A stretch of 64,000 nucleotides of DNA, taken from assembly GCF_013122565.1 (NCBI RefSeq), contig NZ_CP053258.1; one strand, given 5' to 3'. The first letter of the stretch is position 1. The number at the start of each line of letters is the position of its first letter. This DNA is from Escherichia coli. Its GTDB lineage: Bacteria > Pseudomonadota > Gammaproteobacteria > Enterobacterales > Enterobacteriaceae. This document shows, in pieces, positions 11,077 to 57,565 of the stretch. The notes beneath the pieces were generated by a model that worked only from the letters and a program-made list of their open reading frames with translations, did not search any database and was not told where the DNA came from. Both the position numbers and the translations under genes were made by a program.

Positions 11077-12093
11077 ATGTCCACATTACGCCTGCTCATC
11101 TCTGACTCTTACGACCCGTGGTTTAACCTGGCGGTGGAGGAGTGTATTTTTCGCCAAATGCCCGCCACGCAGCGCGTTCTGTTTCTCTGGCGCAATGCCG
11201 ACACGGTAGTAATTGGTCGCGCGCAGAACCCGTGGAAAGAGTGTAATACCCGGCGGATGGAAGAAGATAACGTCCGCCTGGCGCGACGCAGTAGCGGTGG
11301 CGGCGCGGTTTTCCACGATCTCGGCAATACCTGTTTTACCTTTATGGCTGGCAAGCCGGAGTACGATAAAACTATCTCCACGTCGATTGTGCTCAATGCG
11401 CTGAACGCGCTTGGCGTCAGCGCCGAAGCGTCCGGACGTAACGATCTGGTGGTGAAAACCGCCGAAGGCGACCGCAAAGTCTCAGGATCGGCCTATCGCG
11501 AAACCAAAGATCGTGGCTTCCACCACGGCACCTTGCTGCTCAATGCCGACCTTAGCCGCCTGGCAAACTATCTCAATCCGGATAAAAAGAAACTGGCGGC
11601 GAAAGGCATTACCTCAGTGCGTTCCCGCGTGACCAACCTCACCGAGCTGCTGCCGGGGATCACCCATGAGCAGGTTTGCGAGGCCATAACCGAGGCCTTT
11701 TTCGCCCATTATGGCGAGCGCGTGGAAGCGGAAATCATCTCCCCGGACAAAACGCCAGACTTGCCAAACTTCGCCGAAACCTTTGCCCGCCAGAGTAGCT
11801 GGGAATGGAACTTCGGTCAGGCTCCGGCATTCTCGCATCTGCTGGATGAACGCTTTACCTGGGGCGGCGTGGAACTGCATTTCGACGTTGAAAAAGGCCA
11901 TATCACCCGCGCCCAGGTGTTTACCGACAGCCTCAACCCCGCGCCGCTGGAAGCCCTCGCCGGACGACTCCAAGGCTGCCTGTACCGCGCAGATATGCTG
12001 CAACAAGAGTGCGAAGCGCTGTTGGTTGACTTCCCGGACCAGGAAAAAGAGCTACGGGAGTTGTCGACGTGGATAGCGGGGGCGGTAAGGTAA
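11077..12093 (+). CDS. lplA: Lipoate-protein ligase A, 338 aa
   Basis: [31 protein letters not shown] catalytic domain; exact length match. Confidence 0.95.
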
Positions 12094-12124
12094 CTCGCTG
12101 ATTAAAATATCCAGGGAAGGAAAT

Positions 12125-12388
12125 ATGATCGATCTGGAAAACCAGGAACGGGAGATTATCAATTTAATGTTCAGCCAGCGTATTTCCTGGCTAGCCGCCG
12201 TGCGTATCAGGCATAAATTATCGCTTGCTGAAGTAAGTAAAATGTTAGGTATCTCGATTAATTCTCTAAAACAGATCGAAAAGACGGAACGGCTTAGCTC
12301 AAACATCAAAAGCAAAATGGCAGAAATTTATGGTTGTCCACCAGAGTTGCTGATATGCCCTTCCTGGATGACGGCTGAACATAAATGA
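12125..12388 (+). CDS. Small XRE-type HTH protein (87 aa) occupying the position where K-12 has hipH (yjjJ); possibly a truncated N-terminal HTH remnant
   Basis: HTH_3-like LSLAEVSKMLGISINSLKQIE; AT-rich codon usage; starts 32 bp after lplA stop, same strand. Confidence 0.5.
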   Translation: MIDLENQEREIINLMFSQRISWLAAVRIRHKLSLAEVSKMLGISINSLKQIEKTERLSSNIKSKMAEIYGCPPELLICPSWMTAEHK

Positions 12389-19444: not shown

Positions 19445-19705
19445 CATGCCGGATACGGCCTACGGTTCGGCACAGACTTGTAGGCCTGATAAGACGCGTC
19501 AAGCGTCGCATCAGGCATTGTGCGCCAACTGCCGGATGCGGCGTGAACGCCTTATCCGGCCTACGGTTCGGCACAAACCTGTAGGCATGATAAGACGCGA
19601 CAAGCGTCGCATCAGGCATTATGCGCCGACTGCCGGATGCGGCGTAAACGCCTTATCCGGCATTGAGCGCCAACTGCCGGATGCGGCGTGAACGCCTTAT
19701 CCGGC
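19445..19705. repeat. REP/BIME cluster between yjjW and yjjV
   Basis: At least four copies of ccggatgcggcgtgaacgccttatccggcctac-type REP units. Confidence 0.8.
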
Positions 19706-26265: not shown

Positions 26266-27297
26266 ATGTCTGCATTTACCCCGGCAAGTGAAGTCTTGCT
26301 GCGTCACAGTGATGATTTCGAACAAAGCCGTATTCTGTTTGCCGGAGACTTACAGGATGACCTGCCCGCGCGTTTAGATACCGCGGCCAGCCGTGCTCAT
26401 ACCCAGCAATTCCACCACTGGCAGGTGTTAAGCCGCCAGATGGGGGATAACGCCCGTTTTAGTCTGGTCGCCACGGCGGATGATGTCGCAGATTGCGATA
26501 CGCTGATTTACTACTGGCCGAAGAACAAACCGGAAGCCCAGTTCCAGTTGATGAATTTACTTTCTCTGCTGCCAGTGGGGACAGATATTTTTGTCGTTGG
26601 CGAGAACCGCAGCGGCGTGCGCAGCGCCGAGCAGATGCTGGCTGATTATGCGCCGTTGAATAAAGTCGACAGCGCCCGTCGCTGTGGCCTCTATTTTGGT
26701 CGTCTGGAAAAACAGCCGGTATTTGATGCCGATAAATTCTGGGGCGAATACAGCGTCGATGGCCTGACGGTCAAAACGCTGCCTGGCGTGTTTAGCCGCG
26801 ACGGTCTGGATGTCGGTAGTCAGTTGCTGCTCTCGACGTTAACCCCGCACACGAAAGGTAAAGTGCTGGATGTCGGCTGTGGCGCGGGCGTGCTTTCGGT
26901 TGCCTTTGCGCGCCATTCGCCGAAAATTCGTCTCACTCTGTGCGATGTCTCTGCCCCGGCGGTAGAAGCCAGCCGCGCAACACTTGCGGCCAACGGTGTT
27001 GAAGGTGAAGTCTTTGCCAGCAACGTCTTTTCCGAGGTGAAAGGTCGTTTTGATATGATCATCTCCAACCCGCCGTTCCACGATGGGATGCAAACCAGCC
27101 TCGATGCGGCGCAAACGCTGATTCGCGGCGCGGTGCGTCATCTTAATAGCGGCGGCGAGCTGCGAATTGTAGCGAACGCCTTCCTGCCTTACCCGGACGT
27201 GCTGGATGAGACATTTGGCTTCCATGAAGTTATCGCGCAAACCGGGCGCTTCAAGGTGTATCGCGCCATTATGACCCGCCAGGCGAAGAAAGGTTAA
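26266..27297 (+). CDS. rsmC: 16S rRNA m2G1207 methyltransferase RsmC
   Basis: SAM-binding [11 protein letters not shown] and NPPFH motif; 343 aa. Confidence 0.9.
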
Positions 27298-27299
27298 TT

Positions 27300-27480
<181 letters not shown>

Positions 27481-27528
27481 CCTGATGGACATTTTTCCAG
27501 CAATTACACATCAGGCGATAATTAACTA

Positions 27529-27556
27529 TTGACGAAAAGCTGAAAACCACTAGAAT
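27529..27556 (+). promoter_or_regulatory. Sigma70 promoter of the tRNA-Leu gene (TTGACG-N16-TAGAAT with GC-rich discriminator)
   Basis: -35 TTGACG and -10 TAGAAT followed by gcgcctccg discriminator, about 40 bp upstream of the tRNA 5' end. Confidence 0.6.
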
Positions 27557-27597
27557 GCGCCTCCGTGGTAGCAATTCTTTTTAAGAATTGATGGTAT

Positions 27598-27684
27598 GCG
27601 AAGGTGGCGGAATTGGTAGACGCGCTAGCTTCAGGTGTTAGTGTCCTTACGGACGTGGGGGTTCAAGTCCCCCCCCTCGCACCA
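27598..27684 (+). tRNA. leuQ: tRNA-Leu (anticodon CAG), single copy
   Basis: GCGAAGGTGGCGGAATTGGTAGACGCGCTAGCTTCAGGTG...GGTTCAAGTCCCCCCCCTCGCACCA; long variable arm, CCA end encoded. Confidence 0.9.
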
Positions 27685-27722
27685 ATTATCTTTACTTCCT
27701 TTCTTGTTTCTTCCTTGATTTT

Positions 27723-27959
27723 TCATCCCTGATTCAAATTCATTAGCATCAGCATGATGCCAGCACTAAGCGCCAGGCACGATGGTAGCAAAACGTAATG
27801 CCGTAACTGTTTGTGATACAGCATCACCGGCGTCAATATCAATCCCATCAGAATGACAATCCGCCACTGATCCGGCGATAAATCCGCATACATCAGCCCT
27901 GCAATCAGCAATCCCGGCAGCAACACTCCCCAGCCACTGCCCAGCGTACGTTGCAACAT
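27723..27959 (-). CDS. yjjZ: Small membrane protein YjjZ, 78 aa
   Basis: MLQRTLGSGWGVLLPGLLIAGLMYADLSPDQW... Confidence 0.6.
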   Translation of the reverse strand: MLQRTLGSGWGVLLPGLLIAGLMYADLSPDQWRIVILMGLILTPVMLYHKQLRHYVLLPSCLALSAGIMLMLMNLNQG

Positions 27960-28099
27960 GGTTTCATCTCTTTCATTGATAATGATAACCAATATCATAT
28001 GATAATTTTTATCATTTGCAAGCCAGAGAAATCCCTTGCTATCGGGTAAACCTATCGCTAGGATTAGCAATCATTATCATTTAGATTATTATCACGATT

Positions 28100-28888
28100 A
28101 TGGCCTATCGTTCCGCACCGCTCTATGAAGATATCATCTGGCGAACGCATCTCCAGCCACAGGATGCTGGGCTTGCACAAGCCGTACGTGCGACGATCGC
28201 CGAACATCGTGAACATTTGCTCGAGTTTATCCGCCTGGATGAACCCGCTCCGCTTAACGCCATGACGCTGGCGCAATGGTCATCACCGAATGCGCTAAGT
28301 TCTCTACTCGCGGTCTATTCCGATCATATCTATCGCAACCAACCAACGATGATCCGCGAGAACAAACCGCTGATCTCACTATGGGCACAATGGTATATCG
28401 GCCTGATGGTGCCACCATTAATGCTGGCGCTACTGACGCAGGAAAAAGCATTAGATGTATCGCCGGAACATTTCCATGCTGAGTTTCACGAAACCGGACG
28501 CGTCGCCTGTTTCTGGGTCGATGTGTGTGAAGATAAAAACGCAACACCACATTCGCCGCAGCAGCGAATGGAAACGTTAATCAGCCAGGCGCTGGTTCCG
28601 GTTGTGCAGGCACTAGAAGCGACCGGAGAGATCAACGGCAAACTTATCTGGAGTAATACCGGTTATTTGATCAACTGGTATCTCACTGAGATGAAGCAAC
28701 TGCTCGGCGAGGCGACGGTTGAATCGCTGCGCCATGCCCTCTTTTTTGAGAAAACGCTTACTACCGGTGAAGATAATCCACTCTGGCGTACCGTGGTGCT
28801 ACGCGACGGCCTGCTGGTGCGCCGCACTTGCTGCCAGCGTTATCGCTTACCGGATGTGCAGCAATGTGGCGATTGTACGCTGAAATGA
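28100..28888 (+). CDS. fhuF: Ferric-siderophore reductase FhuF (2Fe-2S, C-terminal C-C-x10-C-x2-C)
   Basis: 262 aa; C-terminal RTCCQRYRLPDVQQCGDCTLK. Confidence 0.9.
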   Translation: MAYRSAPLYEDIIWRTHLQPQDAGLAQAVRATIAEHREHLLEFIRLDEPAPLNAMTLAQWSSPNALSSLLAVYSDHIYRNQPTMIRENKPLISLWAQWYIGLMVPPLMLALLTQEKALDVSPEHFHAEFHETGRVACFWVDVCEDKNATPHSPQQRMETLISQALVPVVQALEATGEINGKLIWSNTGYLINWYLTEMKQLLGEATVESLRHALFFEKTLTTGEDNPLWRTVVLRDGLLVRRTCCQRYRLPDVQQCGDCTLK

Positions 28889-42171: not shown

Positions 42172-42341
42172 TAGGTAGCGACTTGAAACTGGTTAATTTT
42201 ACCTCACTTTTTTAATTTTTGTTCAAAAATACAATAACCACTTATTGATACATTTTCTTTTCTTATTTTTTTCACACGAATTGTATCTATTTTGAACGAA
42301 ATATTTTATAGAGTGTGGAATTTTAAGAAAGGACATCTGAA

Positions 42342-42884
42342 ATGTTAAACCGTGACTTCGATCATCTCTCAACGCTATTACATCTCTTTTTTGAACGTGA
42401 GGATATTTGCCAAAAGCTTAATATTATTGACCAAAACAATATCACCGGTTGGGAAGTGTGGTTCCAGGTAGAGTTTGCTAATATGCTCTGCTCAACAGAC
42501 CATGAATGGTGGCGTGAACAAGCACTTTCCTGTGATATGCGCAAAAAACCTGAGCGCCCGACACTACGCACAGATTTCTTACTACGTAAAAAAGGCTGGG
42601 CACAAGATAGCTATATCGCGCTTGAAATAAAACAAAACAGAGACGCGACCAGTTGTGTTAAAAATATGATCGCAGACTTAGAAAAAAGCGCAAAAATAAA
42701 ACGTTCCGAACTCGATTTACGCAGTTTCTGGACCTTGGGTATCACCCCTATGATAGACAGGGAAAGGCTGGACTCTCTCATCGATTGCTATTTAGATGAG
42801 AAATTTTATCTTACTAAATCTCGTAAAAAACACGTTTTACTTAAAGAAATAAATAACACACCATATTGCTATATTGTTATTTAA
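42342..42884 (+). CDS. Hypothetical 180-aa protein, AT-rich, with PD-(D/E)xK-like motif arrangement
   Basis: SD AAGGA 8 nt upstream of ATG; candidate motifs E (WEVWFQVEF), D (LRTDFLL), ExK (IALEIKQ); low GC versus flanking genes. Confidence 0.5.
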   Translation: MLNRDFDHLSTLLHLFFEREDICQKLNIIDQNNITGWEVWFQVEFANMLCSTDHEWWREQALSCDMRKKPERPTLRTDFLLRKKGWAQDSYIALEIKQNRDATSCVKNMIADLEKSAKIKRSELDLRSFWTLGITPMIDRERLDSLIDCYLDEKFYLTKSRKKHVLLKEINNTPYCYIVI

Positions 42885-42992
42885 TATTTATAGCATGAAT
42901 ATAATTTTTAAATGAGTTACACAACCGAGGGCTAAAAATCGCTTCGGTTGTGATCATCATCACATAAATAACCTTCATAAACCTTGCTCAAA

Positions 42993-43020
42993 ACCGCTCA
43001 ACCGCAAAACTGACCGCTTA
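42993..43020. promoter_or_regulatory. Putative BtsR (YehT) binding site: direct repeat ACCGCTCA-N12-ACCGCTTA upstream of btsT
   Basis: Two copies of ACC(G)CT(C/T)A about 160 bp upstream of the btsT start, matching the recalled LytTR direct-repeat motif. Confidence 0.5.
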
Positions 43021-45590: not shown

Positions 45591-46547
45591 ATGAACCCGA
45601 TTGCAGTTACCCTACTCACCGGTTTTTTAGGCGCGGGCAAAACTACCCTGCTGCGCCATATTCTTAACGAACAACACGGCTACAAGATTGCCGTGATTGA
45701 AAACGAATTCGGCGAAGTCTCCGTTGATGATCAACTAATTGGCGACCGCGCCACGCAGATCAAAACGCTGACCAACGGCTGCATCTGCTGTTCGCGCTCC
45801 AACGAGCTGGAAGACGCACTACTCGACCTGCTGGATAATCTCGACAAGGGTAATATTCAGTTCGATCGTCTGGTGATTGAATGCACCGGCATGGCCGATC
45901 CCGGCCCGATTATTCAGACCTTTTTCTCCCATGAGATTTTATGCCAGCGCTACCTGCTGGACGGGGTGATTGCGCTGGTGGATGCGGTACATGCCGATGA
46001 GCAGATGAACCAGTTCACCATCGCCCAGTCCCAGGTTGGCTACGCCGACCGTATTCTGCTGACTAAAACCGACGTCGCAGGCGAAGCAGAAAAACTGCGT
46101 GAACGTCTGGCGCGCATCAACGCCCGCGCACCGGTCTACACCGTTACCCACGGCGACATCGACCTGGGCCTGCTGTTCAACACCAACGGTTTTATGCTGG
46201 AAGAAAACGTCGTCAGCACCAAACCGCGTTTCCACTTTATCGCGGACAAACAAAACGATATTTCGTCGATTGTGGTGGAACTGGATTACCCGGTAGATAT
46301 CAGCGAAGTTTCCCGGGTGATGGAAAACCTGCTGCTGGAATCGGCAGATAAACTGCTGCGTTACAAAGGGATGCTATGGATTGACGGCGAACCTAACCGC
46401 CTGCTGTTCCAGGGCGTCCAGCGCCTCTACAGCGCCGACTGGGACCGCCCGTGGGGCGATGAAAAACCGCATAGCACGATGGTGTTTATTGGGATTCAGC
46501 TGCCGGAGGATGAGATAAGGGCAGCGTTTGCGGGGTTGAGGAAGTAA
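45591..46547 (+). CDS. yjiA: CobW/YjiA-family metal-binding GTPase YjiA, 318 aa
   Basis: MNPIAVTLLTGFLGAGKTTLLRHIL (P-loop); CxCC motif GCICCS. Confidence 0.85.
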   Translation: MNPIAVTLLTGFLGAGKTTLLRHILNEQHGYKIAVIENEFGEVSVDDQLIGDRATQIKTLTNGCICCSRSNELEDALLDLLDNLDKGNIQFDRLVIECTGMADPGPIIQTFFSHEILCQRYLLDGVIALVDAVHADEQMNQFTIAQSQVGYADRILLTKTDVAGEAEKLRERLARINARAPVYTVTHGDIDLGLLFNTNGFMLEENVVSTKPRFHFIADKQNDISSIVVELDYPVDISEVSRVMENLLLESADKLLRYKGMLWIDGEPNRLLFQGVQRLYSADWDRPWGDEKPHSTMVFIGIQLPEDEIRAAFAGLRK

Positions 46548-46558
46548 TTTTGGATGAT

Positions 46559-46589
46559 GGCCGCCATGTGGCGGCCTGAATTATTTTTT
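46559..46589. terminator. Rho-independent terminator after yjiA
   Basis: Hairpin ggccgccatgtggcggcc followed by ttattttttg. Confidence 0.6.
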
Positions 46590-46883
46590 GTTCTGATCGC
46601 GCAGCATCGCTTCACGTAAAATTGCGTTCAGGCGAGTTTGATAGCCTTTACCAGGTCGCTTCAGCCATTCCATCACATCAGCATCAATACGCACCGAAGC
46701 CTGGGTTTTCAATGGCCGATAAAACTTACCGCGTTCTGCGTTAGACCATTGCTCATCGCTGGAAGGAGGGATATCGCTGTAATCAATATCTTCGTCGGAC
46801 TTATTCGCCAGTGCCTTCAGTTCGGCCTCATGCTGCACATCGAGTGTAGAGGAGGTCCCTCGTTTATGTTTAACCATGCTCAT
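46581..46883 (-). CDS. brnA: BrnA-like antitoxin (ribbon-helix-helix, DUF4415 type)
   Basis: DIDYSDIPPSSDEQWSNAERGKFYRPLKTQASVRIDADVMEWLKRPGKGYQTRLNAILREAM; start overlaps brnT 3' end; the 148-aa ORF-track model is an upstream extension. Confidence 0.75.
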   Translation of the reverse strand: MSMVKHKRGTSSTLDVQHEAELKALANKSDEDIDYSDIPPSSDEQWSNAERGKFYRPLKTQASVRIDADVMEWLKRPGKGYQTRLNAILREAMLRDQNKK

Positions 46884-47157
46884 AGCGACTCCTCTCTTTA
46901 CGATCTGCTTTTCGTGCACTGATGATGCGAATAATTTCATTTCCGCTTTCGAAACGGATGGTATGCGCAGCCAGAATAACCACGATACCGTGAACCACGC
47001 CGATAGTCTGCCAGCGATACTCACCATTTTCTATGCGATCTTGCTGTGACAAATGTTGTAGATCATCAAACACTAACACCGCATCTTCAAAGCGGATGCC
47101 ATGTTTCACCCGATTACTTTTGGCCTTGTTTGCATCCCATTCAAACTCCATTGGCAT
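46870..47157 (-). CDS. brnT: BrnT-like toxin (DUF497, RelE-fold ribonuclease)
   Basis: MEFEWDANKAKSNRVKHGIRFEDAVLVFDD signature; exact start (47151/47157/47166) uncertain. Confidence 0.8.
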   Translation of the reverse strand: MPMEFEWDANKAKSNRVKHGIRFEDAVLVFDDLQHLSQQDRIENGEYRWQTIGVVHGIVVILAAHTIRFESGNEIIRIISARKADRKERSRYEHG

Positions 47158-47172
47158 AGTTGCCATCCCTAA

Positions 47173-47215
47173 TTGTATATACAAAAATGTATCTACAATT
47201 ATTCTGCAATTATAG
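47173..47215 (-). promoter_or_regulatory. Putative brnTA promoter/operator (TATAAT plus palindromes TTGTATATACAA and TTGTAGATACA)
   Basis: Minus-strand TATAAT at 47212..47207 followed by two related palindromic sites immediately before the brnT start. Confidence 0.4.
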
Positions 47216-47311
47216 CGTTGATGTTGGAAATAGCATCACGTTTTAGGAAAAGATGGGGAAGTTGATATGAAGGGGCTGGATGGCAACATTGGGACACCAT
47301 CCAGCACTTAT

Positions 47312-48046
47312 TCAAACCTGATAGCAATCCACCAAAAATGCCATCATTTCACTGGCATCTTTGCTGTGATAAAAGCGCACCATTTTGCTGTTGAACTCCA
47401 GCGCACGAGCTGCGGGTACACTAATGGGATTGTAACCGTGGCGCATTAACCAGCCGTTCATCATATGGCGACTGGTACGCTTGTTGCCATCAAAGAAAAA
47501 CTGAAAATAAGCACCAAATAAAAACATTGCCAGCGCCCCTTCGAACGGTGGCATCTCTTTTATTTGTGCCACACCTGCGGCGAATATTCGATTCAGTTCA
47601 GGTGCACCTGCTTCAGTGGCTGGTGGAAAATGAGTGCCCAGTTCACCGAGATGAACGCGCGTATTGTAATGTAACTCTTCACCTTCGCCGCGAAAAACGC
47701 CCCACTCCAGCGCCTCATTACGCGCAATAATGCCGTTAAGCAACGTGAACGTTTTCTTATCAAGGTCGAAACGCCCGGATTGCACAAGTTCAATCAGTTT
47801 TTTTGCGCTATCTGCCAGGTTCAACACCTGCTCAGTATCACTGACCTTATGCCCGCCAACGGTGACACCATCGAGCAGCGTTTTAACTTCAACAAAGGTA
47901 TAGGGGTTATTTTCCAGTTGCGCGGCATCCCAGACAAACCCTGCCATATGCGTTTTGAAGGTAAACAAGGCTGCGCGCGTACCGACAATTTGCATCGCCG
48001 GGATGGCATTTGCATTCCAGCTCAGGTCCAGTAGTTTGGTTGTCAT
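47312..48046 (-). CDS. Fic/Doc-fold protein with non-canonical active-site motif QFFFDGNKRTSR (Gln in place of the catalytic His)
   Basis: QFFFDGNKRTSRHMMNGWLMRHGY aligns to the Fic motif HPFx[DE]GNGRxxR...GY; N-terminal AAQLENN resembles the inhibitory-helix motif; SD AAGGA before ATG; 43 bp downstream of the GmrSD-like gene. Confidence 0.7.
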   Translation of the reverse strand: MTTKLLDLSWNANAIPAMQIVGTRAALFTFKTHMAGFVWDAAQLENNPYTFVEVKTLLDGVTVGGHKVSDTEQVLNLADSAKKLIELVQSGRFDLDKKTFTLLNGIIARNEALEWGVFRGEGEELHYNTRVHLGELGTHFPPATEAGAPELNRIFAAGVAQIKEMPPFEGALAMFLFGAYFQFFFDGNKRTSRHMMNGWLMRHGYNPISVPAARALEFNSKMVRFYHSKDASEMMAFLVDCYQV

Positions 48047-48089
48047 TAGAGGATCCTTGATTGCATGGTAAAGAGGATATTATTCCATA

Positions 48090-50189
48090 TTAAGCCATCG
48101 CGTTATCCATCTGCTTTTCAAATGCCTGACGAATTAATCCCATCACATAAGGAAGCTCAGAAAGATCGCTGAAACCTACTTCAACATCGCCATTGCCCCA
48201 ACGGCCTATATCTGTGACATCTTTAGCCATACATTTTGGGTCAACCAGTTCATGGAATGGCATATTTAGTGATAAACGTAAGCGACTTTTTTGCGGCACC
48301 ACATCAACAAAATTCGTCTCCGCTTTGAAGGCAACATAGAGCTTCAATATTTCTCGCGTAACCCCAGCGTCCAGCGCCATAACGGCATCAGAAAGGCTGT
48401 CAAAAAGTACGCGGATATGCGTACCTTCTTCAAGTTGCGGGAAATCAGCAAGGATATATCCCGTTCCTCGTTCAATGACGGTGCGATAACGAGCCAACAC
48501 GTCTTCCGAAAGTTTGGGGATCGCCCAGACGTCTATTGCCAGCTCGGCCAGACGTTCCGCTCTCTTTTGTATCGCTGCACGATCCCATATTTCACATTGC
48601 CCTAACCCCGTGTTCAGGCGTAATGGACTTTCCTTAAAGCCACCTTTTATATCTCGCTTCTTCGTAAATGGACGGTCGCTGTAGCTTGAGTTATAGCCAG
48701 TTAACGTTAAATTACCCAACGTATGGAGCCACTTTTTATGGATACGCTTCCATTCCGGGCCAAGGTCATCGCGCCACTTCGCCGATAAATTAGGGTTCTG
48801 CGGCATGATATGTTCAATCGTATAAGTGTCAACATAGACCCGTTCTTTACGACCGTGGTTTTCAAATCTGCGTAGCCAATAGCTGCGATTACGGAAGTTG
48901 TAGAGGTCGCGAGTTTTCAGTTCACGTTGAAATTCATCATCATCCGGGAAACGACGGTAGGAAGGCAGTTCCAGCAAATGCGCCGCAATGCTCTCCAGAT
49001 AACGCTCTTTATCCAGCACTTTGTAAAACGTGGCGAAGGTTTTGGTAAATGAGTTGGTGGGAATGGCACAGACTGCGCGCCGGAAGATATACGACTCAAT
49101 TAAACGCGTGGCACTTAAAAAATCCGCGGCAGAAAGAATTCCCTGTTTATAGTCGTGATAAAGCACCAACAGGAACGGCCATGCAGCATCAACTTTCAGT
49201 TCCCGCAGATCCTGAAACGCCATCTTTAATATTTTGTCTTTTTCGCTATCCAGCGCCATCGCACAAAAATAATCCGCATAGGTACGAATATCCGCAACCA
49301 GCGCCTCCATCCCGCTATCCATCACTCCTGGTTTTCGCGCATAGCGTTTAAAGGCTTCATAGACATCACCAATTCGCGGAATCTCACCTGTTTTTACCGT
49401 CAGGTAATTACGCATAAAACTGTCGAAATAGTCAGTGTATCCCTTCTGACCAAACGCCAGCTCCATGGGCCGCCAGTAATCGTCGTACAGTTGGCTTTGA
49501 TGTTCTGGCTCCAGCCCCATCAAAACATAGTTGCGTACCAGATCCGCCTGACTCAGCGCTTTCCCTGTAGAGTTCATACTTTCGAAGATAAGTTGCGGAT
49601 TATCCTGACCGCGGTTCAAGGCGACATCCACAATCAGCAGTTTTGAAAGGCCCTGACATAACGCGGTGAAATTGCCGTGGAGTTTGCCTATTTGCTCATG
49701 GAAAAACTCAAAATTCTCTTTCACGCGTAGAGAGCAATTTTCTGCCAGCGGTTTTTGCCTAATCAATGCCAGCAGGCTCTCTCTGTCCGTTTGCGTAAGA
49801 AGTAACTTAAAACCACGCTCGCCCGATTCATACGGATTGAGCAGATAATAGTTTCGTAATTTCATGGCGGAGAAACCATCCATCACCTCGTCATCACCAA
49901 GATGTCTGGACAACGCTTCCAGCAATAACATCGCCGTTGTCAGGCGTTGCTGACCGTCAATCACCAGTAAGGGAGAGATCCCCGAAACCTGATATAGGCC
50001 CTGTTCGATATACACCACCGAGCCGATGAAATGCGCCGGGATATCATCACGCTGCCCGGCACGTATTACATCGTCCCAGAGCTGGCGGCACTGTTCCTCT
50101 GACCATGAATAAGTACGCTGATAAATGGGAATAACGAATTGCTGAGAGCGTTTTAGAAAATCGAGTAATCGGGCTTCGGTGGCTTTCAT
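48090..50189 (-). CDS. GmrSD-family Type IV (modification-dependent) restriction endonuclease, DUF262 + DUF1524 with extra C-terminal domain, 699 aa
   Basis: DUF262 motifs IPIYQRTYSW and DGQQRLTT; DUF1524 His-Me motifs EHIMPQ and HTLGNLTLT; SD AGGAG before ATG. Confidence 0.8.
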   Translation of the reverse strand: MKATEARLLDFLKRSQQFVIPIYQRTYSWSEEQCRQLWDDVIRAGQRDDIPAHFIGSVVYIEQGLYQVSGISPLLVIDGQQRLTTAMLLLEALSRHLGDDEVMDGFSAMKLRNYYLLNPYESGERGFKLLLTQTDRESLLALIRQKPLAENCSLRVKENFEFFHEQIGKLHGNFTALCQGLSKLLIVDVALNRGQDNPQLIFESMNSTGKALSQADLVRNYVLMGLEPEHQSQLYDDYWRPMELAFGQKGYTDYFDSFMRNYLTVKTGEIPRIGDVYEAFKRYARKPGVMDSGMEALVADIRTYADYFCAMALDSEKDKILKMAFQDLRELKVDAAWPFLLVLYHDYKQGILSAADFLSATRLIESYIFRRAVCAIPTNSFTKTFATFYKVLDKERYLESIAAHLLELPSYRRFPDDDEFQRELKTRDLYNFRNRSYWLRRFENHGRKERVYVDTYTIEHIMPQNPNLSAKWRDDLGPEWKRIHKKWLHTLGNLTLTGYNSSYSDRPFTKKRDIKGGFKESPLRLNTGLGQCEIWDRAAIQKRAERLAELAIDVWAIPKLSEDVLARYRTVIERGTGYILADFPQLEEGTHIRVLFDSLSDAVMALDAGVTREILKLYVAFKAETNFVDVVPQKSRLRLSLNMPFHELVDPKCMAKDVTDIGRWGNGDVEVGFSDLSELPYVMGLIRQAFEKQMDNAMA

Positions 50190-50473
50190 GAATGACTCCT
50201 GTCAAATTGCACTGGCAAACGGCGTCATTATGCTGCGAATAAAAAATAAAAGTTAGCGTCTTTGTTTCTGCAAAAATACCATTCCAGGATAAATCAAAAT
50301 ATATTAAGAAACACCTCAGAACGCATTCATTAGAACAATTAATACTTCCAACCAATATTTATAACGCATTGAAAATGATCATGTTTTTGATTGTGTTGAC
50401 GATAGTTTGATATAACAAAGCATTCACTTCACATTGAATACCTCCCTCTTTTTCAGGGCAAGGAATGCTTTTT

Positions 50474-52819
50474 ATGACATCAACTAATTTCAGCCAGATT
50501 GCAGCCTTCCTGTGGTCTGTCGCCGACCTGTTACGCGGCGATTTTAAACAATCACAATATGGACGAATTATTCTTCCTTTTACCCTTTTGCGTCGTCTGG
50601 AATGCGTACTCGAAACAACGAAAGACGCGGTCATTGCTGAGGCGCAAAAAGTAAAAGCCATGAAACTGCCGGAGGAAGCCCAGGAGAAAATGATCCTGCG
50701 GGCGACTAATGGCCTGACGTTCTTTAACGCCTCAGCGATGGACCTCAGCAAAATGGGGCAAAATGGCATACAGGACAACCTGGAAAACTACATCCAGTCG
50801 TTCTCTTCGGATGCCCGCGAAATTTTCGAACACTTCAAGTTCAGCGAGTTTGTCGGACAGCTGGCGGATGCGAACTTGCTGTTCAAAGTGGTGCAAATAT
50901 TCGCTAAAGCAGATTTATACCCGGAGCATGTCACCAACCACGATATGGGGCTGGTGTTTGAGGAGCTGATCCGCCGTTTTGCCGAGAGTTCTAACGAAAC
51001 CGCCGGGGAGCACTTTACCCCGCGTGATATCGTCAATCTGACCACCTCGCTGGTGTTTTTCGATGATGATGACGCGCTCAATAAAGACGGCATCATCCGC
51101 ACCATTTACGACCCAACAGCGGGAACCGGCGGCTTTCTCTCCTCCGGCATGGAGTTCGTCCACAAACAAAACCCCAATGCCGTGATGCGCGCGTTTGGTC
51201 AGGAGTTAAACCCGGAATCCTACGCCATCTGTAAAGCCGACATGCTGATTAAGGGCCAGGACGTCAGCCTTATCAAACTCGGCAACACCCTGTCCAACGA
51301 TCAGCTCCCCGCAGAAAAATTCGATTACATGCTTTCTAATCCACCTTTCGGCGTGGACTGGAAAAAGATAGAAACCGACATCAACAACGAGCACAAACTC
51401 AAAGGTGCCGATGGTCGCTTTGGCCCCGGCCTGCCCCGCGTCTCTGACGGTTCGTTGCTGTTTCTGCTGCACCTGATCAGCAAAATGCGCGATGCCAAAA
51501 GCGGTGGCGGGCGGATCGGCATCATTCTTAATGGTTCGCCGTTATTCACCGGCGGTGCAGGAAGCGGTGAAAGCGAGATCCGCCGCTACATTCTGGAAGC
51601 GGATTTGCTGGAAGGCATTATCGCCCTGCCCACCGACATGTTTTACAACACCGGTATCGCTACCTATGTTTGGGTGCTGTCCAACAAAAAAGCGCCAGAA
51701 CGCAAAGGTAAAGTCCAGCTTATCGACGCCAGCAACCTGTGCGGCAAAATGCGTAAGTCGCTGGGATCAAAACGTAATATTCTCGGGGAGGAGGATATTG
51801 GTTTAATCACCCGCACGTTTGGCGATTTCGAACCCGTTGCCACCACCACGCTCGCGGCGTTAGGCCTGGAGAAAGCACCTGAACAAAAATCCAGCCGGGG
51901 ACGCCAGCCGACCACAACCAAAGCTGAGGCGGCAAAAACCTTTGCCAGCAAAGTCTTTTACAGCACCGAATTTGGCTATCGACGCATCACCGTTGAGCGC
52001 CCGTTGCGCCTGTCGTCTCAGATCACCGATGACGCTATTGCCACATTGCGCTTTGCGCCGAAGCCGTTTAACGCGCCGATGGCACAACTGTATGACGCCT
52101 TTGCTTTCCAGTGGCAGGACGGTAATTACGGCGACTTAACAGCGGTAGAAAGTGAAGCACGCGCCATTCTTAAAGCCGATTTTAGCGAGCTGAAAGAGAA
52201 GCAAATTAAAGATCTGCTCGACAGCAAATTATGGCTGGCCCAGCGCGGGTTAATGGAAAAAGCGCGGCGTATACAGGCGGCGATGGGGATGCTGGCGGGT
52301 GGCAAAGAGACCGTTAGCAATGACTTTAATCAGTTCCAGTTGACGCTGAAAGAGGCGTTCAAAACCGCAGGCGTGAAGCTGGATGCGAAAGAGAACAAGC
52401 AGTTTATCGATGCTATCACCCGCAAAAACCCGGACGCCGAGCCGGTAGTCAGCAAGGTACTGAAAGAAGCGGCACAACCGCTGTATGGCGCGTTTGAGTA
52501 CCACGGAAAGGTTGTGGAGTTTGAGCCGGATGGCGACCTGCGCGATAACGTGAATGTGCCGCTGAACCCGACGGTATCTACCAGCGAGTTGATCGAGGGT
52601 TACTTCAAAGCGGAAGTATTGCCGCACGTCGCGGATGCGTGGATTAACGCCGATAAGCGCGATGCGAAAGATGGGGATATCGGGATTGTGGGGTATGAAA
52701 TTCCGTTTAACCGCCATTTTTATGTTTATCAGCCGCCGAGGCCGCTGGAGGAGATTGATGCGGATCTGGATGCGGTAAGCGCTGAGATTATGAAACTGTT
52801 GCAGGAGGTACATTCCTGA
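50474..52819 (+). CDS. hsdM: Type I restriction-modification N6-adenine DNA methyltransferase subunit HsdM (long form, about 780 aa)
   Basis: AdoMet motif [11 protein letters not shown] and catalytic NPPFG; stop overlaps hsdS start; ORF track extends to 50465. Confidence 0.9.
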
Positions 52820-54240
52820 TGGCAGGGTTAAATAAATATCAGGCGTATCCGGAGTATAGGGATTCTGGGGTGGAGTGGTTGGGGGAGATACCCTCACACT
52901 GGAGCGTTAGCAAGCCCCGTTATATGTTTAATTTCGGCAAAGGGCTTACAATTACCAAAGAGAATCTCCAGGACGACGGGATACCTTGCATTAACTACGG
53001 TGAAATCCATTCAAAATATGGTTTTGAAGTATCCCCCAAAATTCACCCATTGAAATGCGTTGATGAGAAGTATATAAAAGATAATTCAGGCTCATTACTT
53101 TTAAAAGGAGACATTATTTTTGCAGACACATCTGAAGATATTGATGGTTCCGGTAATTTCTCACAACTAATCAGCGATAATATTTCATTCGCTGGTTATC
53201 ATACAATTATTGCCAAACCACTTAATAGAAGAAATTGGCGATTTTATGCTTATCTTCTTGATTGCAAAGAGTTGCGAACCCAAGTTAGACATGCAGTTAA
53301 GGGAGTAAAGGTATTTAGCATTACACAAGCTATTTTACGCGGCCTTTCTATTTGGCTCCCTACGGATGATGAACAGAGTAAAATAGCTGATTTCCTCGAC
53401 CACGAAACTGTAAAAATCGACAACCTAATCAAGAAACAACAACAACTCATTGAACTACTGAAAGAAAAACGTCAGGCAGTGATTAGCCATGCGGTGACCA
53501 AAGGGCTAAATCCTGATGTGCCGATGAAAGATTCTGGGGTTGCGTGGTTGGGGAAAATACCAAAACATTGGGAAATGAGTAAACTACGCTACATGTTTCG
53601 CTTCGGAAAAGGTCTAACAATTACAAAAGAACATCTGCACGATGAGGGGGTTCCATGTGTTAACTATGGCGAAATACATTCTAAATTTGGTTTCGAAATC
53701 GACCCTCAAATTCACAAATTAAAATGTGTTGATGAATCGTACATTCTAAATAACCCCGACTCATTGATCTATAAAGGAGATATTATATTTGCAGATACAT
53801 CTGAAGACATTGACGGCGCTGGTAATTTTACACAATTGATTAGCGATAACCAAATATTTGCCGGTTATCACACTATTATATTACGCCCTCTTAATAGAGA
53901 GTCCTTAAGGTTTTATGCATATATATTTGATAGCAAAGCACTACGGGCACAAATTAGTAATGCAGTGAAAGGCGTGAAAGTATTTAGTATTACTCAAGCC
54001 ATTCTTCGAAGTACATCGATATGGTTTCCACCATTATCAGAACGAGAACGTATTGTTGCATTTCTCGATAACCAAACAATAAAAATCGATACCCTAATTG
54101 AGAAACAACTCCACCAAATAGCTCTCCTAAAAGAACGCCGCACCGCCCTTATCTCCGCTGCCGTCACCGGAAAAATCGACCTACGCAACTGGACCGCCCC
54201 CATCCCCGAAGCGGAAACACCCACGGAGGCCAGCGCATGA
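52819..54240 (+). CDS. hsdS: Type I R-M specificity subunit HsdS with two near-identical target-recognition halves
   Basis: Two tandem TRD-plus-conserved-helix units (KPRYMFNFGKGLTITKENL... and KLRYMFRFGKGLTITKEHL...); ATGA overlap with hsdR. Confidence 0.9.
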   Translation: MAGLNKYQAYPEYRDSGVEWLGEIPSHWSVSKPRYMFNFGKGLTITKENLQDDGIPCINYGEIHSKYGFEVSPKIHPLKCVDEKYIKDNSGSLLLKGDIIFADTSEDIDGSGNFSQLISDNISFAGYHTIIAKPLNRRNWRFYAYLLDCKELRTQVRHAVKGVKVFSITQAILRGLSIWLPTDDEQSKIADFLDHETVKIDNLIKKQQQLIELLKEKRQAVISHAVTKGLNPDVPMKDSGVAWLGKIPKHWEMSKLRYMFRFGKGLTITKEHLHDEGVPCVNYGEIHSKFGFEIDPQIHKLKCVDESYILNNPDSLIYKGDIIFADTSEDIDGAGNFTQLISDNQIFAGYHTIILRPLNRESLRFYAYIFDSKALRAQISNAVKGVKVFSITQAILRSTSIWFPPLSERERIVAFLDNQTIKIDTLIEKQLHQIALLKERRTALISAAVTGKIDLRNWTAPIPEAETPTEASA

Positions 54241-57200
54241 ACCACGACATTACAAAAGAGGTTAACCTGCAAAACGACATTATCGCGCAGATGGTGGAAA
54301 AAGGCTGGATTGTCGGCAAAGGTGACGGCTACGACCGGGAACGTGCGCTATACGCACAAGACACCTTAAACTTCGTAAAAACCACCCAACCGCAGGAGTG
54401 GGAGAAATTCGCACGCGTTTATCCCAACGACACCGAGCGCCATTTCCTCGACGCGCTGGTCGCGCAGCTTAAAAAAGCCGACAGCAACGCCACTGATATT
54501 CAGTCGCGCACCTGGGGTACGCTCGGCGTACTTCGCCACGGCCTGAAAATTCGCAATGCCCGTTTTTCGCTGTGCCAGTTTAAACCGGAACATAATCTCA
54601 ACCCGGAAACGCTGGCGCGCTATCAGCAGAATATCTGCCGTATTGTGCCGGAACTGGTCTACAGCCCGTATGCCTCAAATAGCGTCTTTGCAGAAACGGG
54701 CGTGAAAGCCAAAAAATGGCGTATCGATCTGGTGCTGTTTATCAACGGCCTGCCGGTTGCCACGCTGGAGCTAAAATCCGAATTTAAACAGGCGGTGCAG
54801 AACGCCATTGCCCAGTACAAAAAGACCCGCCTGCCGAAAGATCCCGCGACCAATAAACCTGAACCGCTGCTGACCTTTAAGCGCGGCGCGCTGGTACATT
54901 TTGCCGTCAGCCAGTATGACGTCTTTATGACCACCAAACTCGCCGGTGACAGCACCTTCTTCCTGCCGTTTAACAAAGGCACCAAAGACGGCGGCGCAGG
55001 CAACGAGATCCCCGAAGATACTCGCCGCTACGCCACAGATTATCTGTGGAATGAAGTGCTGCTGCCGGACAACTTATTAAAAATCCTCGCCAGTTTTGTC
55101 CATTTGCAGATTGAAGAAAAAGAGGACTGGAACGGGCTGAAAGCGAAGAAAGAGAGCCTGATTTTCCCGCGCTATCACCAGTGGGATGTGGTCAATAAAC
55201 TGCTGGAGGCCGCGACGATTGAAGGCACCGGCCACAAATACCTGATTCAGCACAGCGCCGGTTCCGGTAAATCGAACTCCATTGCCTGGACCGCCCACCA
55301 GCTTTCTCGTCTATACGACGTTAACGGGGAAAAACTGTTCCACTCCGTTATCGTGGTGACGGACCGTACGGTGCTGGACGACCAGCTTCAGGACACCATC
55401 TGGCAGTTCGAACATGCCGACGGCGTGGTCGGGCGCATCAATAACAGAGAGGGCGACGGCTCCAAATCGGAAAAGCTCGCCAGCGCGCTGGAAAACTCGC
55501 AGCCGATAATCATCGTCACCATCCAGACATTCCCGTTCGTACTGAAAGCTATCGAAAACAGCATCAGCCTGAAGCAGCGTAAATATGCGGTGATTGCCGA
55601 CGAAGCGCACTCATCGCAGAGCGGTTCCACCGCCCGTCAGCTTAAAGAAGTGCTGATGAGCGAAGAGATGGATGATGACGTGGTGCTGTCGTCAGAAGAT
55701 ATTCTGGATGCGACCATTGCCGCCCGGAAAGGCAGCAGTAACCTGAACTACTACGCCTTTACCGCCACGCCAAAATCCAAAACCCTGGAACTCTTTGGTC
55801 GCTGTCCGCGTCCCGATGAACCGGCCTCAAAAACCAATAAACCTGAGGCCTTCCACGTCTACTCCATGCGCCAGGCAATCGAAGAAGGCTTTATCCTCGA
55901 CGTGCTGAAAAACTACACCAACTACAAAGTGGCGTATCAGTTGCTGCAAAAGCTGGAAGATGAAAACCGCGAAGTCGATAGCAAACGGGCGAAGGTAAAA
56001 CTCAATCAGTGGGTGACGCTGCACGACCACAATATCTCGCAGAAGGTGAAGGTGATTGTGGAGCACTTCCGCAAACATGTGATGCATCTGCTTGGCGGCC
56101 AGGCTAAAGCGATGGTGGTCACCAGTTCACGCAAAGCCGCCGTGCGCTACAAGCTGGCGTTTGATAAATACATTAGCGAGAACAATTACCAGAAAATCAG
56201 CGCGATGGTGGCGTTTTCCGGGGAAGTTGAATTCCGGGAAGGCGACCATAACAGCCTGGCATTGTTAAACCAGAAATTTACTGAAATAAACATGAACCCC
56301 GGCCTGAAAGGGCGGGATATGCGCAAAGCCTTCGACAGCGATGATTATCAGGTCATGCTGGTTGCCAATAAATTCCAGACCGGTTTTGACCAGCCGAAGC
56401 TGTGCGCGATGTACGTGGATAAACCCCTCGGTGGCGTCGAGTGCGTGCAGACACTCTCCCGCCTGAACCGCACCTATCCGGGCAAAGCGGAATCAGGCAC
56501 TTTTGTCCTCGATTTTTATAACGATCCAGACGAGATCCTCGGCGCATTCCAGCCCTATTTCCAGACGGCGGAACTGACCGATGTCAGCGATCCGCAGCAG
56601 GTGTTCGATCTGTTTGAAAAACTGCGCGCCACGCAGATTTTCCAGTGGCATGAAGTCGAGCAGTTCTGCGAGGCATACTTCATCAAAAATAAATCGAATG
56701 CGGCGATCAGTAATATCTGCAAACCGGCGGTCGAACGCTGGAAAAAGCGTTATCTGATGGCGATAGACGCCTATTTGACCGCCAAAGAGATGTTCGAGCG
56801 CACCAAAAAAACGGGCGATACAGTATTAATCACCAATGCGGAAAACAGCTTTAAAGCCTGTAAGCAGGAGAAAGATCGTCTGGAGATTTTCAAGAAAGAT
56901 CTCGGCAGCTTTGTTCGTTTTTATGAATTTATGTCGCAGATCGTTGAATACGATGACAAGGATCTGGAAAAGCTAAGCCTGTTTGCTCGTCATCTGCGTC
57001 CGCTGCTGCATGAGCAACGTCTGGAAGAGGATGAAATTGATCTCAGTAATGTGGAGATGAGTCACTATCGTTTATCGAAAATCCATGAGCAAGATTTACG
57101 CTTACAGGAAGAAACGCCTGACTATACGCTGGATGCAAGTAATAATATTGGTACGGCAAAAGCGAAAGATAAAAAAGAGGAGTTTTTATCGCAGGTGCTT

Positions 57201-57500
57201 TCTCGGATGAATGAATTATTCATTAGCGACCATTTGACCGACAAAGATATGATCAGCAATGCTTTTGCGGTGTATAACAAAATAACTGAAAATGAAAATG
57301 TTATGACACAAATTAAAAACAATCCCCCAGAACAAGCGATTCTTGGTGATTTCCTCCAGGCAGTTGATAATGCTGTAATGGACAGTAATGACGCTCGGCA
57401 AGAATTTATGTTGCAATATTTATCCGATCCAGCTCGGGCAAAGGGCTTTGCTTATCTGATGTTTGATATGCTAACGGGGAAAATTGCTTTACCAACATAA
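54237..57500 (+). CDS. hsdR: Type I R-M restriction subunit HsdR (helicase/endonuclease), 1087 aa
   Basis: N-terminal PD-(D/E)xK (IDLVLF...LELK), helicase motif I QHSAGSGKS, motif II IADEAHSS. Confidence 0.9.
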   Translation: MNHDITKEVNLQNDIIAQMVEKGWIVGKGDGYDRERALYAQDTLNFVKTTQPQEWEKFARVYPNDTERHFLDALVAQLKKADSNATDIQSRTWGTLGVLRHGLKIRNARFSLCQFKPEHNLNPETLARYQQNICRIVPELVYSPYASNSVFAETGVKAKKWRIDLVLFINGLPVATLELKSEFKQAVQNAIAQYKKTRLPKDPATNKPEPLLTFKRGALVHFAVSQYDVFMTTKLAGDSTFFLPFNKGTKDGGAGNEIPEDTRRYATDYLWNEVLLPDNLLKILASFVHLQIEEKEDWNGLKAKKESLIFPRYHQWDVVNKLLEAATIEGTGHKYLIQHSAGSGKSNSIAWTAHQLSRLYDVNGEKLFHSVIVVTDRTVLDDQLQDTIWQFEHADGVVGRINNREGDGSKSEKLASALENSQPIIIVTIQTFPFVLKAIENSISLKQRKYAVIADEAHSSQSGSTARQLKEVLMSEEMDDDVVLSSEDILDATIAARKGSSNLNYYAFTATPKSKTLELFGRCPRPDEPASKTNKPEAFHVYSMRQAIEEGFILDVLKNYTNYKVAYQLLQKLEDENREVDSKRAKVKLNQWVTLHDHNISQKVKVIVEHFRKHVMHLLGGQAKAMVVTSSRKAAVRYKLAFDKYISENNYQKISAMVAFSGEVEFREGDHNSLALLNQKFTEINMNPGLKGRDMRKAFDSDDYQVMLVANKFQTGFDQPKLCAMYVDKPLGGVECVQTLSRLNRTYPGKAESGTFVLDFYNDPDEILGAFQPYFQTAELTDVSDPQQVFDLFEKLRATQIFQWHEVEQFCEAYFIKNKSNAAISNICKPAVERWKKRYLMAIDAYLTAKEMFERTKKTGDTVLITNAENSFKACKQEKDRLEIFKKDLGSFVRFYEFMSQIVEYDDKDLEKLSLFARHLRPLLHEQRLEEDEIDLSNVEMSHYRLSKIHEQDLRLQEETPDYTLDASNNIGTAKAKDKKEEFLSQVLSRMNELFISDHLTDKDMISNAFAVYNKITENENVMTQIKNNPPEQAILGDFLQAVDNAVMDSNDARQEFMLQYLSDPARAKGFAYLMFDMLTGKIALPT

Positions 57501-57565
57501 AAATACGTTGATAGCCGGGGTCGCACTTTCTACCCCGGCCATATTATTTACAATAAGGAATAGCT

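Follow-up and report, generated by a model that had tools for sequence, protein, structure and literature searches.

A one-copy variant of the leuQPV tRNA operon in Escherichia coli and its probable origin by contraction between direct repeats

The 64-kb stretch of Escherichia coli DNA analysed here (the window) carries one tRNA-Leu(CAG) gene at the leuQPV locus, where K-12 MG1655 carries three. This one-copy locus is an already known, already annotated and common copy-number variant of a classic tRNA operon, called the 'leuV' operon in the older literature, and it belongs to a natural polymorphism in copy number that recurs among E. coli and its relatives. We consider it very likely that the locus arose through a real contraction of the operon from three genes to one, with a loss of 236 bp between the leuQ and leuV repeats.

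Anatomy of the single-gene operon

The preliminary description of this DNA had placed a single 87-nt tRNA-Leu(CAG) gene behind TTGACG-N16-TAGAAT and ahead of yjjZ/fhuF, and ARAGORN, Rfam and a promoter scan agree on this arrangement. The interval described (27481-27722) begins at the end of the last REP element, reaches to the yjjZ stop codon and holds the whole transcription unit. The stop codons of rsmC and yjjZ are 425 bp apart in the window. The features of the locus and its neighbours are as follows.

26266-27297, + strand: rsmC, 16S rRNA m2G1207 methyltransferase, 343 aa (ORF, colinearity with K-12)
27313-27477, no strand assigned: REP/BIME cluster from rsmC to the tRNA promoter, in which two direct 54-nt REP-containing units flank a REP of opposite orientation
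27529-27556, + strand: predicted sigma-70 promoter of the leuQPV operon, with -35 TTGACG, a 16-nt spacer and -10 TAGAAT (promoter scan, 10 of 12 consensus matches)
27557-27597, + strand: GC-rich discriminator GCGCCTCC and 5' leader of about 33 nt, with the sequence found ahead of leuQ in K-12
27598-27684, + strand: tRNA-Leu(CAG), 87 nt, with a long variable arm and encoded CCA (ARAGORN, Rfam, identity to leuQ/leuV)
27685-27722, + strand: 3' trailer, the same as the K-12 leuV trailer, unstructured and running into the convergent yjjZ
27723-27959, - strand: yjjZ, DUF1435, 78 aa, the convergent downstream neighbour (Pfam PF07256, E = 8.3e-36; synteny with K-12)
28100-28888, + strand: fhuF, ferric-siderophore reductase, 262 aa (ORF, synteny with K-12)

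Run on the whole window, ARAGORN identifies tRNA-Leu(CAG) at 27598-27684 (+) as the sole tRNA gene of the 64 kb. The Rfam tRNA model scores 48.5 bits over the same interval (gathering score 29). The gene is identical to K-12 leuQ and leuV at 87 of 87 nt; it has a C at position 48, where leuP has a T, and its run of eight C is intact. A search that allowed up to three mismatches found no second tRNA-Leu(CAG) copy within the 64-kb window. The minimum free energy fold of the isolated tRNA is not a cloverleaf (z = -1.4), a result that is uninformative for tRNAs, and the identity of the gene is based on ARAGORN, Rfam and the match to leuQ rather than on this fold.

The promoter scan places the -35 element at 27529-27534 and the -10 element at 27551-27556, and in the alignment with K-12 positions 27517-27597 are identical. 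Transcription would start at about 27565. The leader, which extends from +1 to +33 (PMC2965240), is taken off by RNase P (PMC2190699). Downstream of the CCA, the first 59 nt are identical to the K-12 leuV trailer. The terminator scan found no intrinsic terminator or terminator-like hairpin 3' of the tRNA on the + strand; termination in the trailer is presumably Rho-dependent, and Rho-dependent termination followed by trimming of the trailer by PNPase and RNase II has been described for this operon (PMC2190699).

Comparison with K-12

The window is colinear with K-12 MG1655 from 4,635,002 to 4,566,256, in reverse orientation and at 95-99% identity. At this locus annotated MG1655 has leuQ, leuP and leuV in tandem (b4370-b4368), as the preliminary description had correctly stated, with 28-nt and 34-nt spacers (AAAACCACGTTGATATTGCTCGCACTGG and AACGAGGCGATATCAAAAAAAGTAAGATGACTGT) between them. 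The leuQ and leuV genes have the same sequence, and leuP differs from them at position 48 (T for C). Neither spacer 1 nor spacer 2 occurs in the 64-kb window with up to three mismatches allowed.

Two alignments to K-12 cover the locus, one of which stops at the leuQ 3' end while the other begins at the leuV 5' end; in the window they overlap by 88-89 nt, inside the tRNA. A comparison of length with K-12, which had been proposed along with the initial observation, shows the window to be shorter by exactly 236 bp at the tRNA array. This is the distance from the start of leuQ to the start of leuV, that is, two tRNA-plus-spacer units. The junction consists of the leuQ leader, the tRNA and the leuV trailer: the end points are at equivalent places in the repeat, one copy of the repeat is retained and foreign sequence is absent, as for a deletion between direct repeats.

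Like K-12 leuQPV, the locus in the window has the same chromosomal position, promoter, discriminator, 33-nt leader and trailer, and its tRNA is of the tRNA-Leu(CAG) type and equal to leuQ/leuV. Unlike K-12 leuQPV, it has one tRNA gene instead of three, with both the 28-nt and the 34-nt spacer absent, as is the leuP variant (T48). The upstream REP cluster differs as well, comprising three units in a 300-nt interval in the window versus a 267-nt version in K-12.

Copy number among complete E. coli genomes

Three diagnostic queries derived from K-12 were run against 5,426 complete E. coli genomes from RefSeq and matched as follows.

leuQ-leuP junction: 4,980 of 5,426 genomes
leuP-leuV junction: 4,985 of 5,426 genomes
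spacer1-tRNA-spacer2 core: 4,977 of 5,426 genomes

The final copy classes were drawn from the core query and the two junction queries together. At least three copies are present in 4,977 of the 5,426 genomes (91.7%), two in about 3 + 8 = 11 and one in about 437 (8%), and one genome has no match to the queries; these counts assume that divergence hides no spacer, and identities are at least 95% throughout. A first estimate of 508 genomes, covered to at least 80% by a leader+tRNA+trailer query, was dropped, since that class admits some three-copy genomes (the O111 lineage and strain 10153, where alignment pieces had been joined).

One copy is annotated in O157:H7 RIMD 0509939 and in strain 143, both with a rsmC-tRNA interval of 189 nt, in turkey strain 3908 (300-nt interval), in the K-12 derivative ME8067 (NZ_CP028703.1), whose flanks are 99.94-100% identical to MG1655, and in NissleGFP_pZE21 (NZ_CP035486.1), a derivative of Nissle 1917. 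The identical one-copy join is also found on eight metagenome contigs. Strains 167, Z1323CEC0018 and AVS0747 have two copies with spacer 2 kept, and ECCTRSRTH03 has two with spacer 1 kept. Such two-copy alleles (about 11 of 5,426 genomes) reflect the same kind of unequal exchange in the array, but with one unit lost. Strain 10153 and O55:H7 CB9615 have three copies. In published gene counts, EDL933 has two CTG-Leu tRNA genes and MG1655 four (PMC4539685, Table S1).

The one-copy allele of O157:H7 is built like that of the window, with leader, single tRNA and leuV trailer and free of spacers, and both have the variant ACACATCAGGCG upstream of the -35 element. They differ in the REP cluster, which has one unit in O157:H7 (189-nt interval) and three in the window (300 nt), and in their flanks, with 17 differences over the 1,032 nt of rsmC and 20 over 1,200 nt on the downstream side. 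Because the flanks differ to this extent, the window lies outside the O157:H7 clone.

Two further loci deviate from these arrangements. Strain Br_112_kylling (NZ_CP182371.1) has two annotated tRNA-Leu genes and then, at 603-753, 151 nt free of annotation up to yjjZ. The size of this gap is about that of spacer 2, a third tRNA and the trailer, minus 8 nt, and it may contain a damaged third tRNA copy. On the human-gut metagenome contig OPSK01001816 (13600-13923), 51 nt of leuQ promoter and leader (from -17) stand after thrP-argX-hisR. Next come one tRNA-Leu(CAG) and 73 nt covering the leuV trailer and the 3' end of yjjZ, and beyond these lie 13.6 kb with no relation to the window. This arrangement is found in 0 of the 5,426 complete E. 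coli genomes, and the join reflects either an assembly chimera (coverage 9x) or a true leuT-leuQPV rearrangement.

Ancestral state of the operon

The 20-mer ACTAGAATGCGCCTCCGTGG, which spans the -10 element and the discriminator, is shared by 61 species representatives of GTDB, most of them Enterobacteriaceae, and 52 of these 61 loci carry enough downstream DNA for a copy-number call. Three tandem tRNA-Leu(CAG) genes with similar spacer lengths stand behind the same promoter in 48 of the 52 informative representatives, from Enterobacteriaceae and related families, including E. albertii, Escherichia sp. MOD1-EC7003, Citrobacter, Klebsiella, Raoultella, Kluyvera and Salmonella arizonae. Of the other four, E. 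whittamii and Winslowiella iniecta have one copy each, and two copies are present in K. pneumoniae ATCC 13883 and in a Pluralibacter MAG. By this distribution the triplet is the ancestral arrangement, and the one-copy state is derived.

The one-copy haplotypes in turn vary, with 189, 267 or 300 nt between rsmC and the tRNA and with 14-20 differences per 1.2 kb downstream. As one-copy alleles are found on different haplotypes, even within the K-12 lineage, contraction has occurred repeatedly. The reverse polarity, with one copy ancestral in the lineage of the window and the triplet amplified in other E. coli, could draw on the lack of a close relative of the window among the sampled E. coli and on E. 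whittamii, which shares both the one-copy state and the same three-REP upstream architecture. We regard it as highly improbable, given the triplets of the representatives above and the presence of one-copy alleles on several unrelated E. coli haplotypes, a K-12 derivative included. E. whittamii as the source of the window, or introgression from it, was rejected, the identity being only 93.4%.

Contraction or assembly collapse

The preliminary description had offered two explanations for the single gene, a copy-number contraction between repeats or an assembly collapse; these are the right pair, and the evidence favours contraction. If the array had collapsed, the organism would have three copies, and the assembler would have gone from the leader via the repeated tRNA to the trailer, leaving out the two spacers. 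A path that skips the internal units would indeed be consistent with the sequence, as leuQ and leuV match at all 87 nt, and the searches found no close relative of the window to serve as an independent check, its best match being 98.5% among the 5,426 complete genomes and at most 98.9% in other collections. One-copy calls also come from single assemblies of laboratory lineages with three-copy parents (ME8067 and NissleGFP_pZE21), where they represent either deletion on a laboratory timescale or assembly collapse, and the one-copy representative of E. whittamii is a short-read draft of about 9x coverage. A second tandem array in the window, with a 101-nt BIME unit at 19456-19705 between yjjV and yjjW, is likewise below the K-12 copy number (2.0 versus 4.1). 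However, the length of this array varies widely among complete genomes (spans of 461-723 nt), so the short BIME array is not a sign of collapse.

Other assemblies also speak against a collapse. Public short-read contigs break inside the tRNA instead of collapsing the array, and the 48 representative assemblies (of 52 informative ones) in which three copies are resolved include many short-read drafts. Moreover, many complete O157:H7 genomes, assembled independently, show one copy as well. Assembly collapse is therefore the less likely reading, and we judge it unlikely for this window.

In a real contraction, the direct repeats leuQ and leuV, identical over their 87 bp, would have undergone homologous recombination with each other, or replication would have slipped between them; we infer this mechanism from the geometry of the 236-bp loss. 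The crossover point has left no trace because the two repeats are identical. Uninterrupted identity extends over 87 bp between leuQ and leuV and over only 47 and 39 bp in exchanges with leuP. The full identity of leuQ and leuV, together with the mismatch in leuP, would explain the excess of one-copy (about 437) over two-copy genomes (about 11), although the one-copy count is also inflated by clonal sampling, of O157:H7 especially.

The leuQPV operon is highly transcribed and oriented head-on to replication (PMC8510543), and both properties may favour such deletions. The copy number of another tandem tRNA operon, serV-argVYZQ, shifted spontaneously in laboratory Salmonella (bioRxiv 10.1101/2024.04.04.588050). 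In this case, as in Pseudomonas fluorescens SBW25, tRNA dosage was likewise altered via recombination of repeated tRNA genes, on laboratory to population timescales, but other genes and other organisms than those of the window were involved. In P. fluorescens SBW25 large duplications were selected after deletion of a tRNA gene, in contrast to the small contraction within an operon seen here.

Flanking genes and the window at large

Along the locus rsmC is followed by the REP/BIME cluster, the promoter, the tRNA and then yjjZ/fhuF, colinear with annotated K-12, and the order rsmC - tRNA - yjjZ/fhuF is common to every E. coli locus fetched. Within the cluster, the direct repeat family D1 comprises 27313-27366 and 27424-27477, which are 89% identical. 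The Rfam model naRNA4 matches 27376-27458 (-) with 70.7 bits, probably as a generic match to REP sequence. The interval from rsmC to the tRNA measures 300 nt in the window, 267 in K-12 and 189 in O157:H7, and the three upstream REP units that go with the 300-nt interval are present in E. albertii and E. whittamii as well. Between the divergent yjjZ and fhuF, the promoter region (27965-28095) contains AT-rich GATAAT/ATCATT repeats resembling Fur boxes, and the promoter scan marks several promoter-like hexamer pairs there on both strands.

The exact RsmC protein sequence is widespread among public assemblies, and the exact FhuF protein occurs on public contigs that carry the FhuF Pfam annotation. 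Contigs sharing either exact protein with the window are at most 98.9% identical to it, with synonymous differences in rsmC. Among the 5,426 complete RefSeq E. coli genomes, the 98.5% identity of the nearest match was obtained over 7-8 kb of core genes. The lineage of the window appears to be poorly sampled and deep-branching.

Compared with K-12, no IS-sized insertions were found across the colinear 64 kb, and Shigella was rejected as a source on this ground. The window has an AT-rich insertion of about 0.8 kb between tsr and btsT (42172-42994), which contains an unrelated ORF and is not IS1; this ORF of 180 aa (42342-42884) has no Pfam match. The gene for the K-12 toxin kinase HipH (hipH, yjjJ; about 1.3 kb) is absent at 12092-12380, where 288 nt with a small ORF (about 12126-12388) replace it between deoD and lplA. 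The immigration-control region (46547-58347) differs from the mrr-hsdRMS-symE-mcrBC region of K-12 and encodes a protein with a BrnA-like antitoxin domain, another with weak similarity to Fic proteins, a type IV restriction enzyme of the GmrSD family (699 aa) and the HsdM (784 aa), HsdS (473 aa) and HsdR (1087 aa) subunits of a type I restriction-modification system.

Discussion

Judging from its sequence, the remaining gene should be expressed and processed normally. The one-gene operon is intact and retains the predicted strong stable-RNA promoter, the discriminator, the 33-nt leader cut by RNase P, the encoded CCA and the unstructured trailer; RNase P would be able to remove the leader, and PNPase with RNase II would be able to trim the trailer. 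Each transcript of the locus would carry one tRNA instead of three. Unlike that of K-12 leuQPV, this monocistronic transcript would not require RNase P to separate genes. Assuming the usual leuT outside the window, the genomic dose of tRNA-Leu(CAG) genes has likely fallen from four to two. CUG, the codon read by tRNA-Leu(CAG), is the commonest codon in the window, accounting for 5.46% of 16,280 codons.

That the contraction represents a repeatedly selected cut in the supply of tRNA-Leu(CAG), rather than neutral noise, seems to us doubtful. Under such selection, O157:H7, environmental or avian lineages and the deep-branching lineage of the window could be the ones concerned. Selection would fit the occurrence of one-copy alleles on many backgrounds and the numbers of one-copy and two-copy genomes (about 437 versus about 11). 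It would also fit an experimental-evolution preprint in which inactivating indels in leuQ, leuP, leuV or leuT were linked to faster colony expansion.

Taken alone, the one-copy variant is of small importance, and it cautions that a tandem tRNA array departing from the K-12 form is usually a case of ordinary polymorphism. The two spacer sequences can be used against reads as a check of assembly quality. The variant also amounts to a natural tRNA-dosage experiment, in which whole lineages survive on half the usual number of tRNA-Leu(CAG) genes.
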